A stretch of DNA of 64,000 bases from an uncultured Clostridia bacterium (GTDB taxonomy: Bacteria; Bacillota; Clostridia; TANB77; CAG-508): the NCBI GenBank assembly GCA_949388605.1, contig CASKJV010000007.1, positions 16,689 through 80,688 of the forward strand, in the 5' to 3' direction. The position numbers and the translations under genes were made by a program. Shown here piece by piece: positions 9,478 to 14,755 of the stretch. Within the stretch, counting starts at the first letter, position 1. Each line of letters starts with the position of its first letter. The notes beneath the pieces were generated by a model. It was given only the letters and a program-made list of their open reading frames with translations. It was not told the origin of the DNA and made no database searches.

Positions 9478-9506
9478 TTGAATTTTATGTAAATTTGTGT
9501 TAGAAT
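9478..9506 (+). promoter_or_regulatory. Candidate sigma-A promoter of the five-gene operon (TTGAAT-17 nt-TAGAAT with TG extension)
   Basis: -35 TTGAAT at 9478-9483, -10 TGTTAGAAT ending at 9506. An ATTTTGAT/ATCAAAAT inverted repeat follows at about 9537-9570. Confidence 0.4.
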
Positions 9507-9691
9507 GTTGCTAGTTTTTTATATAATTTAATAAAATATTTTGATTTTAATAATAATATCAAAATTATTTTGCATAATTATAAATTTTAAATATAAGGAG
9601 GTTTTGCTTTTAGTTTTTAATTCTTAGTTACTAATTGAATATAAAAAAGGTAATCAAAGTCTAAAACTCGTAATACGCAAGGAGGATTGTA

Positions 9692-10591
9692 ATGAAAAAA
9701 GCATGTACTTTAATTGCCACCATACCATCACTTAATAATATAGAAAAAGTAGAAAGAGTTTTTGCAAATACTAATATTTCTGAAGTACGATTTAATACTG
9801 GTGCACAAACACCATATTCAATTTCAGAAACACTCGATATTTTAAAAAAGCTATCTATAAAATATAAAAAAAAGCTTTGGATTGATTTAAAAGGACGGCA
9901 GTTAAGAGTTATTAAATGGGCTGATCCATTATTCTCTTGTATTGAATTAAATCACAACATACAACTTTTATATCCAGCACAAATTTACTTCAGAAATAGT
10001 GATAGAGTGAATATTACACATGTAAAAGACGGAAATAAAATTTTCGTAGATCCATTGCCCAAATATCCTTTAGGAGCAGGCCAATCTGTCAATATTATTG
10101 CTAAAGAAATCAAAATTGATGGATATTTAACAAAAACTGATAAACAGTATTTACTTGTATGTCGTAAAAAAAAGCTGAATAATATAATGGCATCTTTTGT
10201 AGAGAACTTTAACGATTTATCACAAATACTTCGTTTTTTACCAACTGCTAAAATAATATGTAAAGTTGAGTCTTCTAAAGGGTTAGAGTTTATTTCTCAA
10301 TACAACATATCTGGATTAATGGCTGCAAGAGATGATTTATTTATTCAAACTGGACAAAATTATAGCCTGTTAGATCACTTAAAATTCATTATTTCTCGGG
10401 ATCCAGAAGCCATTTGTGCTTCACGGATATTTTTATCATTGGAAAAAAAGGATACTGTTGATTTTGCAGATTTTGCAGATTTGGAACTGATGTACAATAT
10501 GGGTTATAGAAAATTTATGTTGTGTGACAATGTTTGCAATTACTGCTTTGAAAATGCTATATTGGCTTGGGAGAATTTCATCAATGGATAA
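9692..10591 (+). CDS. Pyruvate-kinase-like TIM-barrel protein (A plus B domains only, no C-terminal regulatory domain)
   Basis: VRFNTG (PK R..N), IDLKGRQLR (DTKGPEIR), CKVESSKG (KIEN), MAARDDLF (ARGDLG), ASRIFLSL (ATQMLESM), MLCDNV (MLSGET). Confidence 0.65.
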   Translation: MKKACTLIATIPSLNNIEKVERVFANTNISEVRFNTGAQTPYSISETLDILKKLSIKYKKKLWIDLKGRQLRVIKWADPLFSCIELNHNIQLLYPAQIYFRNSDRVNITHVKDGNKIFVDPLPKYPLGAGQSVNIIAKEIKIDGYLTKTDKQYLLVCRKKKLNNIMASFVENFNDLSQILRFLPTAKIICKVESSKGLEFISQYNISGLMAARDDLFIQTGQNYSLLDHLKFIISRDPEAICASRIFLSLEKKDTVDFADFADLELMYNMGYRKFMLCDNVCNYCFENAILAWENFING

Positions 10592-12047
10592 TTTTATTTT
10601 ATGTGGTATGCAATTTGGTGATGAAGGAAAAGGAACTTTTGTTGATTATTTAATATATAATCAAAATATTGATTGTATTGTGAAATATAATGGTGGTTCT
10701 CAGGCCTCTCATACAGTTATTACTCCATCTAGAATTGTTCACAAATTTAGTCAATTAGGCTCTGGAATGTTTTCAGAAAAATGCCATACTTACTTAACAG
10801 ATAATATGGTAATAAATATCGAAAACCTTTTAGTTGAACTTGATGTATTTTCAAGCAAAACTAAAATTCCAATTCCAGAACTTATAAATAGAATTCATAT
10901 ACATGAAAACTGTTTTATTGTAACTCCATATCACAAACTGATAAATAAACTTCGTGAGCTTTCTAAAGGTGATAATCGCCGTGGTACTGTAGGAACTGGA
11001 GTAAGTGAAGTTCAATATTTACTAAATGAACAAAAAAAGTTTCCATGTGAACAACCTTTAGGATTAATGATAAAAGATATTTATAATCATTATAACAATA
11101 ATTCTATTATAGAAAGATTACAAGCTCTTCAAGAATATGTACTTTCTTTTTATTTACAAAATCAGGAAATTATTTCTAAAAATATTCCTGATGAATTAAA
11201 AGAAAATTTATCTAAAGAGATTTCTTTTTTACTGCATCCAAAAGCGTTTTTTACTATTGCTTCACATTATATAACAGAGTTCAAATATGCACGAAAGGAG
11301 TTTAATTTACAAAAATGCCTATATAGCAACTATGATTCAGCTATACGCACTTATCATAATGCTATATACGAAGGATCTCAAGGTCTTCTTATTGATAATG
11401 TTTATGGAATAAAGCCTAATACAACATTTCTTGACACTACAAATAGCTTTGCTCTTAGCCTTTCTCATGCGAATGATGTTACGCATAAAATAGGAATTAC
11501 AAAAGCATTTATGTCTAGACATGGATTAGGTATCTTTCCTACTGAATCATCAACCGTAAGCAATCAGATTTCAGACGAAAATCAAAATTTTTCTTTTTGG
11601 AACGGAAAAATTCGTTTTGGATGGTTTGACAGTATATTAGTAAGATATGCTCAAAGCATTAATAAAGTAAATGAATTATATTTATCTGCACTTGATAAAT
11701 TGGATGATTTCGACACAATCAAAGTTTGTAATGAATACATCTATTCTGGCACTATTGATAGTGAATTTAAAAAAATATTTAGTTACTATCTATCAGAAAA
11801 TGGACAAGTAATTATTACAGATATAAAGGAAAATCATAAGGATTTAAATAAATATTTAAGTAATTGTATTCCAAAATACATTTGTGTAAATGGCTGGAAA
11901 TCAAATATTACCCAAATATCTAATAAATCTTATCTTCCAACTAAATGTTTAGAATATATTAAACTTTTAGAAAAGCTTGTATGTATTCCTATAACAATTG
12001 TATCTGTAGGTCCTACTAGAGAGAATAAAATTAAGTTAACAGTTTAA
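10584..12047 (+). CDS. Divergent adenylosuccinate synthetase (PurA/PurZ)-family ligase
   Basis: QFGDEGKGTFVD P-loop, NGGSQASHTV (catalytic His), GTVGTGVSE, YEGSQGLLID, GIFPTE, VSVGPTRE. The ATG at 10584 overlaps the upstream stop (ATGGATAA). Confidence 0.8.
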   Translation: MDNFILCGMQFGDEGKGTFVDYLIYNQNIDCIVKYNGGSQASHTVITPSRIVHKFSQLGSGMFSEKCHTYLTDNMVINIENLLVELDVFSSKTKIPIPELINRIHIHENCFIVTPYHKLINKLRELSKGDNRRGTVGTGVSEVQYLLNEQKKFPCEQPLGLMIKDIYNHYNNNSIIERLQALQEYVLSFYLQNQEIISKNIPDELKENLSKEISFLLHPKAFFTIASHYITEFKYARKEFNLQKCLYSNYDSAIRTYHNAIYEGSQGLLIDNVYGIKPNTTFLDTTNSFALSLSHANDVTHKIGITKAFMSRHGLGIFPTESSTVSNQISDENQNFSFWNGKIRFGWFDSILVRYAQSINKVNELYLSALDKLDDFDTIKVCNEYIYSGTIDSEFKKIFSYYLSENGQVIITDIKENHKDLNKYLSNCIPKYICVNGWKSNITQISNKSYLPTKCLEYIKLLEKLVCIPITIVSVGPTRENKIKLTV

Positions 12048-12071
12048 ATTGTTTCATCAAGGAGGTAAAAT

Positions 12072-13718: not shown

Positions 13719-13731
13719 GGAGGAATATACC

Positions 13732-14694
13732 ATGGGTGGTTATAGTTATGACAGAGATGTTTATAGTTCCAGTTCCAGCTCCAGTTGGAGCAGTTCAAGT
13801 AATTTTGGAGCAAGTTCCTACTCAACCAGCAAACTTAGTAGTACAACTTTAGATTATAGTATGGAACCAAATGGGAAAATAATCAAAAGTACCACTAAGT
13901 CCCCTATTATTATTGTACTTGATGTGACAGGTTCTAACATTAATTTTGCTCGGGTAGTTTATGATAAATTACCTATGTTCTATGGACAAATAGAGCAAAA
14001 AGGTTATTTGAAAGATTTTGATATTGCTATTTGTGCAGTCGGTGATGCTTATACTGATAGTTACCCTTTACAAATTGGAAATTTTGCAAAAGGAATCGAA
14101 TTGGATTCCTGGCTGGAAAAGATCGTTCTTGAAGGAGGTGGCGGTGGACAAGGTAAAGAATCTTACGAACTTGCTGCTTACTATTTATTAAAAAATACAC
14201 AATTTGTCCCAGGTAGTGAACCTATTATTTTCTTTATTGGTGACGAAAATCCTTATCCAACTGTAAATACATCTCAGACAGAGAACTTCGGTATTGGCAG
14301 TTGTAAAGATGATATTGAACCATTTTCTTTACTTCGTAAGAAAGTAAATGATAATGTTTTTATGCTTTTAAATAAGTATTGTGGCCATAAATTTGAACCC
14401 GATATAACATCTTGTTGGACAAGCCTTTTAGCTCCTGAACATGTAATTAAAATACAGGAGGAAAAATCAATTGTTGATTTAATGCTTGGTATTATCTCAA
14501 TGATATCTTCGACAAGATCATTAGAAACATATCAAATTGATATGAAAAATAGAGGGCAAACTCAAAAACGTATTGAGAATGTTTCAGCTTCTTTACAAGG
14601 ATTATCCACGGCTTTAGTGCCTGTTAAAATTAGTGGAGATATTACCACTACAACAAGTAAGGCAAAAGCCTCTCAAAGAGGAAAAAGACTTTAA
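13732..14694 (+). CDS. von Willebrand factor A (TerY-like) domain protein with an N-terminal poly-Ser low-complexity region
   Basis: MIDAS-like LDVTGS, GGGGGQGKES, FFIGDENP; N-terminus YSSSSSSSWSSSSNFGASSYSTSKLSS; SD AAGGAGG. Confidence 0.7.
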   Translation: MGGYSYDRDVYSSSSSSSWSSSSNFGASSYSTSKLSSTTLDYSMEPNGKIIKSTTKSPIIIVLDVTGSNINFARVVYDKLPMFYGQIEQKGYLKDFDIAICAVGDAYTDSYPLQIGNFAKGIELDSWLEKIVLEGGGGGQGKESYELAAYYLLKNTQFVPGSEPIIFFIGDENPYPTVNTSQTENFGIGSCKDDIEPFSLLRKKVNDNVFMLLNKYCGHKFEPDITSCWTSLLAPEHVIKIQEEKSIVDLMLGIISMISSTRSLETYQIDMKNRGQTQKRIENVSASLQGLSTALVPVKISGDITTTTSKAKASQRGKRL

Positions 14695-14721
14695 GCAAAC
14701 TGTTTAAGTTTATAATTTATA

Positions 14722-14755
14722 AAGGACACGCTAAAATAGCGTGTCCTTGTATTTT
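14722..14755. terminator. Bidirectional intrinsic terminator between the operon and the tagO-like gene
   Basis: AAGGACACGCT-AAAAT-AGCGTGTCCTT, a perfect 11-bp stem followed by a T-rich tract. Confidence 0.8.

Follow-up and report, generated by a model that had tools for sequence, protein, structure and literature searches.

A block of five genes in a 64,000-nucleotide stretch of the genome of an uncultured Clostridia bacterium (GenBank assembly GCA_949388605.1, contig CASKJV010000007.1, positions 16,689 to 80,688; this whole stretch is referred to as the window) represents, in its most complex form, a mobile module common to large phages and bacteria. The invariant core of the module is a protein with a J domain and a protein-kinase fold (JK, encoded by g4) followed by a protein with a von Willebrand factor A fold (vWA, g5), joined to an enzyme related to adenylosuccinate synthetase (PurA-like, g2), an enzyme related to pyruvate kinase (PK-like, g1), or both. 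The first-pass annotation of the window had treated the five genes as a single candidate nucleotide-modifying defence or stress system; the real unit is this core with its one or two enzymes, the uridine kinase-like (Udk-like) product of g3 being an add-on, and the occurrence of the module in phages is the main departure from that earlier interpretation. Going beyond anatomy, conservation and distribution, it is tentatively proposed, at rather less than even likelihood, that this is a conflict- or stress-linked module for the conversion of purine (adenylate) nucleotides, driven by phosphoenolpyruvate (PEP) and GTP and under the control of Hsp70.

Phage and bacterial forms of the module

The vWA protein belongs to a family without a Pfam model, which accounts, at 50% identity and E<=1e-10, for approximately 1,177 clusters among 1.84 billion representatives. 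A wider alignment of this family identified 33 loci in IMG/VR, mostly on contigs of 100-485 kb with GC contents of 0.29-0.71. JK lies directly upstream of vWA in 29 of the 33, and profile searches found the partner to be PurA-like in 22, PK-like only in nine, both in one and neither in one. The same searches detected no Udk-like gene at any of these phage loci, nor is any further recurrent neighbour observed among them, the large clusters of adjacent sequences being artefacts of antisense open reading frames (ORFs). One contig of 139 kb (L039), with a GC content of 0.31 and a T4-type Gp23 capsid gene, carries JK-vWA-PK-PurA, and its vWA is 47% identical to that of the window. Searches with tblastn also found the vWA and PurA-like genes in approximately 200 Mycobacterium phages (cluster C1, Bixzunavirus); in one of these, QBert, the genes are annotated as 'serine/threonine kinase' (gp253), 'hypothetical protein' (gp254) and 'PurA-like adenylosuccinate synthetase' (gp255).

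Amongst bacteria, g2 has hundreds of relatives at 45-68% identity, and three contigs bearing such relatives contain the same five genes in the same order with differing neighbours: a transposase-like gene and small ORFs in one case, clpC and ffh on opposite flanks in another, and hpf and rpmE likewise in the third. A scan of GTDB with the vWA alignment, using one genome for each of 185,579 species and limited by its search pattern such that all counts are lower bounds, matched at least 33 species, all of them uncultured metagenome-assembled genomes (MAGs). The five-gene form is found in 28 of these, all gut or rumen Clostridia and Bacilli-like MAGs; two of the loci are cut by contig ends, and all five ORFs are intact in the 26 species with complete loci. 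The same order is also present in further metagenome contigs with different flanks. The remaining five species, comprising Saccharibacteria and proteobacterial MAGs, have a three-gene form, JK-vWA-PurA-like, and the same trio is carried by large plasmids of the cultured bacteria Rhodococcus opacus, R. jostii RHA1, Tsukamurella, Allorhizobium ampelinum S4 and Acetobacter persici. The Udk-like gene is seen only in the five-gene bacterial form, in gut Firmicutes.

That the module is most diverse and most frequent in large phages could indicate that the bacterial form is a phage takeover or counter-defence module, domesticated or remnant, with little or no role in the bacterium; by analogy with the NARP pathways, it might have served to restore nucleotides depleted by host immunity. 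The phage locus L039, with its GC content of 0.31, adjacent T4-type capsid gene and vWA 47% identical to that of the window, would fit such a history, as would the foreign codon usage of the cassette described below, and metabolite-centred phage countermeasures are an established kind (PMC13464706). Nevertheless, this origin appears quite improbable. The cassette is not bordered by structural, integrase or repeat features of phages, either in the window or in the related loci L003, L005 and L044, and the Udk-like gene and the NrtR-family regulators found beside some loci are bacterial additions. Furthermore, the integrity of the five ORFs in all 26 complete species loci and the conservation of the promoter and leader imply selection in the bacterium.

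Several individual loci have distinctive neighbours or irregularities. In L039 (identical to L048), an AAA+ ATPase gene (PF00004, 4e-17) and a gene for a TelA-like protein (a weak, sub-threshold match of 3.4e-5) precede the module, at 5706-6704 and 7594-8904. In L043, a 485-kb uncultured phage, JK-vWA-PK is followed after a few kb by genes for a Thg1-like tRNA-His guanylyltransferase (11212-12105) and an ADP-ribosylglycohydrolase (13923-15107); seven of the 33 phage loci have the Thg1-like gene, loosely placed. On the Acetobacter plasmid the trio is adjoined by an AbiEii/AbiGii toxin gene (L164, 2944-3651), and on that of Allorhizobium by a type VI secretion system (T6SS) VgrG gene and an AAA-DUF5682-DUF4132 set (L163, 1-1796 and 8273-12756). 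The vWA gene of L005 (13049-14023) has been called as two short genes of 98 and 111 aa, yet tblastn aligns residues 6-320 without a break; the split could result from an in-frame stop, mark a pseudogene or stem from faulty assembly. This contig is labelled Ignavibacteriales, but its neighbouring genes, SpoIID and hpf, resemble those of a Firmicute.

The core pair

The J domain of g4 has its HPD motif at residues 41-43 and scores below the cutoff of the Pfam DnaJ model (2.8e-4, 21.4 bits against 27.8); the homologue in phage L043 matches the same model at 1e-14 (54.8 bits). The remainder of the protein matches Pkinase at 1.2e-21, aligns to CDKL5 in the PDB and ends soon after the kinase fold, with no zinc ribbon or oligonucleotide-binding (OB) fold. 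As HRD is replaced by HGN (N218) and DFG by GFS (237-239), with K128 and E142 retained, the kinase is by its motifs catalytically dead, with the lysine and glutamate of the nucleotide pocket still in place. Comparison of 65 JK homologues found HPD to be retained almost everywhere, and the state of the kinase to follow the enzyme partner. JK sequences from PK-only loci have intact motifs (HGDIKPQN and DFG), whereas every PurA-linked JK is without the catalytic Asp (HGA, HCA, HGN or HGL), while mostly keeping the pair formed by the VAIK Lys and the alphaC Glu and often retaining the DFG Asp as DW(C/S).

No match to g5 is found in Pfam, NCBIfam or PADLOC at E<=0.1, although it matches phrog_2971 at 1.2e-34. 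An AlphaFold (AF2) model built from 41 homologues (pLDDT 82, pTM 0.82) gave as its best Foldseek matches the vWF A3 and integrin I domains (E ~4e-6, TM up to 0.65 on the target), and g5 is accordingly assigned to vWA by its predicted fold. Residues D64-V-T-G-S68 resemble a metal-ion-dependent adhesion site (MIDAS), and D64-x-T66-x-S68 and D171, the putative metal site, are invariant, as are the motifs EGxGGGQxxESYE and GDExPY. Both tails are conserved and disordered, the N-terminal one starting MGG and the C-terminal one ending KRL. The N-termini of vWA proteins read MG[GS]xx[WYF] in PurA-linked loci and MSES.DY in PK-only loci; however, protist and candidate phyla radiation (CPR) homologues also start MGGG(Y/W)Y, hence this N-terminus is a trait of the vWA family and not of the link with PurA. 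As these homologues have no known PurA partner, the idea that the PurA-like enzyme ligates a nucleotide to the N-terminal Gly of vWA was downgraded. A few homologues are fusions, which are rare: vWA is joined to a U-box in P0302, a marine protist transcript from MMETSP that also has an R3H domain, and in P0269, a JGI/ENA sequence without R3H, while P0264, another MMETSP protist transcript, joins vWA to NUDIX. All three start MGG. The U-box is a domain of Hsp70-linked E3 ligases, and its fusion to vWA echoes the link to a J domain in prokaryotes.

The perfect correlation between kinase state and enzyme partner across the 65 loci, together with the differing N-tails of vWA, might reflect a machine that modifies proteins, in which a protein client, perhaps the tail of vWA or a DnaK client, docks on the kinase fold. 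In the PK-only form, the active kinase would phosphorylate this client while the PK-like enzyme regenerates ATP from PEP; in the PurA-linked form, the dead kinase would present the client to the PurA-like enzyme for GTP-dependent phosphorylation or nucleotide ligation. Protein handling is also what the J domain, the vWA fold and the U-box fusions point to, and the aspartate pocket of the PurA-like enzyme is replaced by aromatic residues. However, the correlation rests on essentially two clades and may represent a single evolutionary event, the MGG tail is shared with the protist and CPR homologues, the Udk-like and NrtR partners speak for chemistry on nucleotides as small molecules, and we know of no PurA-family enzyme that acts on proteins. 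Such a machine is judged improbable.

The nucleotide-metabolism enzymes

The product of g1 passes the cutoff of PF00224 (42.5 bits, cutoff 30) and falls far below that of the pyruvate kinase equivalog TIGR01064 (49.1 against 306.4). It aligns with PKLR over the barrel of the A domain and stops after it, with no C domain; the equivalents of the PEP- and Mg-binding residues (R73, D113, K270, E272, D296 and T328, as S) are kept in 30 bacterial and 10 phage homologues, and the motif of the PK-like family is D.KGRQLR. Thus the barrel and catalytic residues of a pyruvate kinase are present, but the complete B lid and the C-terminal domain of the full-length enzyme are not.

The second enzyme belongs to the PurA family (PF00709 at 1.4e-74), yet reaches only about half the cutoffs of the purA equivalogs (208.3 against 395.55 for TIGR00184, 218.9 against 402 for NF002223), and the PurZ model NF038379 aligns with its N-terminal 116 residues only, at 35.1 bits against 300. 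By its sequence, g2 is a divergent PurA paralogue rather than a canonical purA. Alignment with E. coli PurA, the sequence of which was checked against PDB 1kjx, reveals retention of the GDEGKG P-loop, D13, H41, Q224 and D333, alongside the substitutions N38Q, T129V, V273H and K331 to S or A. In PurA, Asn38, Thr129 and Arg143' bind the 5'-phosphate of inosine monophosphate (IMP), and Thr300, Thr301 and Arg303-305 form the aspartate loop. Arg143 has no alignable equivalent in g2, and in all members of its clade the loop TTGRRR has become (F/Y)W(N/Q)Gx(I/F/P)R, such that g2 has neither the IMP-phosphate ligands nor the aspartate loop of PurA. The clade would appear to have retained its catalytic machinery while remodelling the pockets for the IMP phosphate and aspartate. 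All the PurA-like proteins linked to JK-vWA carry this active-site signature, including the mycobacteriophage 'PurA-like' proteins, and therefore constitute a single clade. The label '2-aminooxy adenylosuccinate synthetase' that phrog_1211 gives to PurA-like proteins is a broad family name.

The third enzyme, g3, has the PRK-family fold and P-loop (PF00485, 2.5e-19) and scores below the cutoffs of the udk models (101.7 against 220.3 for TIGR00235, 110.6 against 180 for NF004018); the nearest solved structures are uridine-cytidine kinase 1/2 (UCK1/2; E=1.5e-17). Hence all five domain assignments of the first-pass annotation hold, four of them (PK barrel, PurA-like, Udk-like, J-pseudokinase) by profile or motif and vWA by its AlphaFold/Foldseek fold, as do its description of g2 as a divergent paralogue (208 bits against a 395-bit purA cutoff), the recurrence of the set in unrelated contexts, which it had proposed to check (28 GTDB species, with differing neighbours), and its impression of an unclassified system, given that no PADLOC model describes it.

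The simplest interpretation of such a gene set would be an ordinary salvage operon, in which g2 is a working adenylosuccinate synthetase, g3 a uridine kinase and g1 a small pyruvate kinase, accompanied by two unrelated regulatory genes. The hosts are gut or host-associated bacteria whose small genomes depend on salvage, all the catalytic residues of the three enzymes are present, and synteny is retained in two relatives. Against this, all three enzymes lie far below the NCBIfam equivalog cutoffs, the IMP-phosphate and aspartate residues of the canonical PurA sequence used for comparison are changed throughout the clade, and the cassette is both missing from the same site in close relatives and evolving faster than its flanks. 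A housekeeping operon would also be difficult to reconcile with the vWA scan matching only 33 of 185,579 species, even as a lower bound from a pattern-limited scan, and with the linkage to JK-vWA being retained across phages and plasmids. This is the least likely of the explanations considered.

Accessory and foreign character of the cassette

Two relatives (L044 and L081) share the synteny of the window, with glycan genes, the cassette, a family 4 glycosyltransferase gene (GT4), rpiB and rpsT in the same arrangement. GT4, S20 and RpiB are 79-91% identical between these loci and the window, whereas the five cassette proteins are only 52-75% identical. In five slightly more distant relatives, in which GT4 is 75-81% identical and rpiB adjacent, the cassette is absent within 3-7.5 kb beyond GT4. 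Because it is missing in these relatives, and because its proteins are less similar than their neighbours, the cassette is accessory and either fast-evolving or exchanged. The glycan genes 5' of it (FrhB/Fer4-like, polysaccharide pyruvyl transferase and family 2 glycosyltransferase, GT2) are only 25-43% identical between the window (6247-9371) and L044 (2433-5616), while GT4 on the other side is 91% identical, which places the cassette at the border of a hypervariable surface-polysaccharide locus.

The arginine codon usage of the cassette is foreign. In-frame CGG codons are found at 9896, 10397, 10424, 12180 and 13951, constituting 5 of 56 Arg codons in the cassette against 4 of 467 elsewhere in the window (Fisher p=0.001), and CGN codons are in excess over AGR relative to the rest (p=8e-6). 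The first-pass annotation had listed at least four CGG codons, at coordinates a few nt off and with one of the five missed; the only ones it had noted in backbone genes were two frameshift sites, but CGG is not limited to these, as three other ORFs carry this codon. It had also described the block as richer in GC than its flanks, which is true of the immediate flanks, yet the cassette, with values of 0.27-0.34 for its genes where the 41 other ORFs average 0.268 (sd 0.035), is unexceptional within the window.

An accessory, patchy, fast-evolving and codon-foreign cassette is what would be anticipated of anti-phage defence, a role put forward by the first-pass annotation. Here JK-vWA would sense infection, as chaperone load or a phage protein, and the enzymes would either make a modified nucleotide that blocks or signals, or deplete GTP or IMP. 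The remodelled pockets of the PurA-like enzyme are as expected for a non-canonical product, and the plasmid trios adjoin AbiEii in Acetobacter and lie near T6SS VgrG in Allorhizobium. The combination of vWA with a kinase fold recalls TerY-P, described as anti-phage (PMC11090510), and defence-like systems directed at competitors are known from large phages (PMC7824862). However, PADLOC has no match for g1, g2 or g5, no effector-type domain (nuclease, pore or NADase) is present, and metabolic regulators of the NrtR type are adjacent. The flanks are housekeeping or glycan genes, no locus lying in a recognisable defence island, and the trio is fixed in approximately 200 virulent C1 mycobacteriophages and many jumbo phages, which would be unusual for an abortive system. 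Defence is regarded as unlikely, if less so than the protein-modification, phage-remnant and salvage explanations.

Operon layout and control signals

The overlap, short gaps, promoter and terminator of the five coupled plus-strand ORFs indicate one operon (Table 1). As the first-pass annotation had described, g1 and g2 overlap by ATGGATAA at 10584-10591, the remaining gaps (g2/g3, g3/g4 and g4/g5) are 24, 6 and 13 nt, and the operon stands antiparallel between the minus-strand GT2 and TagO-like genes. Shine-Dalgarno (SD) sequences of the AAGGAGG type lie upstream of g1, g3, g4 and g5. The promoter and terminator had likewise been proposed. The promoter match is by itself at chance level, as the scan yielded 43 promoter-like sites where 39.3 would be expected; in 13 orthologous loci, however, the -10 box, TG.TA.AAT, does not vary. 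The stem of the terminator has 12 bp rather than 11; the sequence upstream of it is A-rich and that downstream T-rich, and it therefore probably ends both of the convergent transcripts between which it sits, those of g5 and GT4.

Table 1. Coordinates of the operon and its signals in the window, and of NrtR-family genes beside the module in other loci (numbered within each locus).
Feature	Position	Strand	Description
Promoter	9478-9506	+	-35 TTGAAT, 17-nt spacer, extended -10 TGtTAGAAT (consensus scan)
Conserved 5' leader	9507-9691	+	185 nt, 14-bp long-range stem, second SD-like box
g1, pyruvate-kinase-like TIM barrel	9692-10591	+	299 aa; short B-domain stub; no C-terminal allosteric domain
g2, PurA-like GTP-dependent ligase (putative)	10584-12047	+	487 aa; family-specific active-site signature
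g3, Udk/PRK-family nucleoside kinase-like protein	12072-12668	+	198 aa
g4 (JK), N-terminal J domain and protein-kinase fold	12675-13718	+	
g5, vWA-fold protein (predicted)	13732-14694	+	320 aa
Intrinsic terminator	14722-14748	+	Perfect 12-bp stem, 3-nt loop, T run (terminator scan)
Flanking GT2 gene	8559-9371	-	Glycan side of operon
Flanking GT4/TagO-like gene	14764-15888	-	Other side of operon
NrtR gene, L019	3425-4051		
NrtR gene, L023	9040-9669		
NrtR gene, L025	3380-4012		
NrtR gene, L033	10589-11263	-	
NrtR gene, L036	5828-6499	-	
NrtR gene, L163	4013-4738	-	
NrtR gene, L161	9162-9809		
NrtR gene, L162	8197-8829		

Between promoter and g1, a 14-bp covarying stem pairs 9522-9535 with 9568-9582 (RNAalifold, 11 species). 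In this alignment 91.6% of cells are paired, against no more than 52.7% in slid controls, and 14 cells show double changes, against 5.7 ± 1.7 in shuffles. A second box, AAGGAGGTTTTGyTT at 9595-9609, is invariant and lies approximately 85 nt 5' of the true SD (9680-9686). A leader peptide starting at this box was considered and rejected, as the sole start, TTG at 9604, is only 2 nt from the SD and the resulting ORF is of 5-10 codons and variable. The leader has no Rfam match at E<=1, and an Rfam scan of the window at gathering thresholds found no riboswitch or other family upstream of the operon. Locus L003 is without the structured leader.

Downstream of the plasmid trios, or facing them, lies a gene annotated NUDIX whose Nudix box is degenerate, and a strict regular expression for this box matched no gene adjacent to the module. 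By Pfam, these neighbours, labelled 'NUDIX hydrolase' in public records, belong to the NrtR family (NUDIX with the NrtR_WHD winged helix, up to 1.7e-25). They adjoin the module in at least 11 loci and in four arrangements: clearly in L019, L023, L025, L026, L028, L029, L033, L036 and L163, and weakly in L161 and L162. These comprise six Bacilli-like five-gene loci, two of Saccharibacteria and the Allorhizobium plasmid, with further instances in Actinobacteria. Classically, the effectors of NrtR are ADP-ribose and NAD-related compounds. The leader of the window is a candidate new cis-regulatory RNA, which may stand in for the NrtR regulator of other lineages.

Interpretation and significance

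If the module is a Hsp70-controlled system for purine conversion, as is tentatively favoured, its parts could act together as follows. The Udk-like kinase would supply a nucleoside monophosphate from a salvaged nucleoside, and the PurA-like enzyme would spend GTP to replace a 6-oxo group by an amine, converting inosine-type to adenine-type nucleotides; this amine is unlikely to be aspartate held in the usual manner, and could be ammonia or another amine. The PK-like enzyme would recharge GDP or ADP from PEP, the net effect being that the adenine-nucleotide pool is rebuilt or altered at the expense of PEP. Meanwhile the pocket of the pseudokinase would read a nucleotide, the J domain would engage DnaK/Hsp70 and the MIDAS of vWA would hold a protein partner, coupling enzyme output to the chaperone and energy state of the cell. 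Expression would be set by a nucleotide-responsive switch, in the form of an NrtR-family regulator elsewhere and the structured leader here. Phages might use the module to maintain the supply of nucleotides and energy while their host is under attack; for this bacterium, it would be a horizontally acquired accessory cassette for stress or conflict, not the housekeeping purA. The first-pass annotation had proposed a pathway from Udk-like through PurA-like to PK-like that yields a modified NTP. Such a pathway may exist, but as PK-like and PurA-like enzymes are interchangeable beside JK-vWA, a strictly linear course of three steps is argued against.

The strongest argument for small-molecule chemistry comes from the links to Udk, NrtR and NUDIX. 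Several observations nonetheless weigh against this scheme. The rebuilt pockets mean that the product of the PurA-like enzyme may not be an adenylate. The core function may be protein-directed rather than metabolic, because PK-only phage systems with an active kinase do without a PurA-like enzyme, and these systems are the strongest argument for a core that acts on proteins. The vWA protein and its conserved MGG tail are not explained by a purely metabolic model; no NrtR gene is found within the 64-kb window, and the classical effectors of NrtR are accommodated only loosely. Finally, the fast evolution and patchy distribution would suit an immune function just as well.

A related possibility, slightly more doubtful still, is that this is a widespread and hitherto unrecognised module of phage-host conflict in which a PurA-family enzyme has acquired new chemistry, its product being read by the pseudokinase that switches Hsp70 onto a target held by vWA. 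Such chemistry might be the direct re-amination of deaminated adenine nucleotides or the synthesis of N6-substituted purine nucleotides. If so, the pathway would be a new one, using nucleotides for immunity or counter-immunity and unlike every described system of defence, anti-defence or salvage.

Were the purine-conversion reading to be correct, it would connect for the first time a PurA-family enzyme with a novel specificity, the recharging of nucleotides with PEP and a pseudokinase that recruits Hsp70. It would give a function to three genes present in approximately 200 mycobacteriophages of teaching collections, annotated merely as 'serine/threonine kinase', 'hypothetical protein' and 'PurA-like', and to a vWA family of approximately 1,200 sequence clusters that lacks a Pfam model. 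It may also reveal a new metabolite-level move in the conflict between phages and bacteria, beside NAD+ reconstitution and nucleotide depletion. Tractable hosts are available in M. smegmatis with Bixzunavirus phages, Rhodococcus jostii RHA1 and Allorhizobium ampelinum S4. For the uncultured gut Clostridia that carry it, the cassette signals a trait gained by horizontal transfer, on the border of a variable surface-glycan locus.

Comparison with known systems

The TerY-P triad, in the passages of PMC11090510 that cite Anantharaman 2012 and Gao 2020, consists of a TerY-like vWA, a PP2C and a Ser/Thr kinase whose C terminus bears a zinc ribbon or OB fold. The resemblance is that a MIDAS-bearing vWA is encoded beside a eukaryote-type kinase fold in a mobile cassette. 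By contrast, no PP2C is present among the five genes or recurrent in approximately 100 related loci, the kinase of g4 appears dead, has an N-terminal J domain and is without a zinc ribbon or OB fold, g5 matches no vWA or TerY model in Pfam or PADLOC, nucleotide enzymes are attached, and the gene order is kinase then vWA. Hence the cassette is not a TerY-P triad, and the connection drawn by the first-pass annotation is not sustained.

The PurA-like enzyme shares with PurA and PurZ the same fold and catalytic set (GDEGKG, Asp13, His41, Gln224), and with PurZ the character of a phage-borne PurA paralogue with, putatively, changed specificity. It differs in falling below the model cutoffs of both and in its own signature of N38Q/T129V/V273H and W(N/Q)G, and it does not co-occur with DatZ, MazZ or DpoZ, being always beside JK-vWA.

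A likeness in concept is seen with NARP1-3, the phage pathways for NAD+ reconstitution that exemplify metabolite-centred countermeasures (PMC13464706). Both would be compact groups of nucleotide-metabolism enzymes, carried by phages, that restore a metabolite pool after its depletion, and the presence of NAD/ADP-ribose-type NrtR regulators beside the module is suggestive of a link. However, there are no proteins in common and no NAD enzyme here, and the NARPs are without a chaperone-linked regulatory pair. In the MoxR-vWA chaperone pairs of jumbo phages, vWA is an adaptor for an ATP-driven chaperone (PMC7824862); the likeness is confined to the vWA adaptor of large phages, as the chaperone link here is a J domain (Hsp70) rather than a MoxR AAA+ protein, and an AAA+ gene is adjacent only in L039.

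More generally, a J domain with its HPD motif, when combined with a targeting domain, recruits Hsp70 to a client, and viruses hijack the host chaperone in this way. For proteins that join a kinase to a J domain, and for viral J proteins, the relevant comparisons are GAK/auxilin-2, Rki of phage RB43 and polyomavirus T antigen. JK differs from these in having its J domain N-terminal and its kinase C-terminal, and they are not known to have a counterpart to its partnership with vWA and with PurA-like or PK-like enzymes.

In PADLOC-DB 2.0, where g1, g2 and g5 are unmatched, g3 has only weak P-loop matches and g4 only generic kinase matches (PD-T4-6, mad6, PglW), and full-text searches of the literature, limited to the collection searched, found no description of this gene combination. 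The module is therefore judged to be new at the level of the system, while its single genes have long been annotated in mycobacteriophages and on plasmids.

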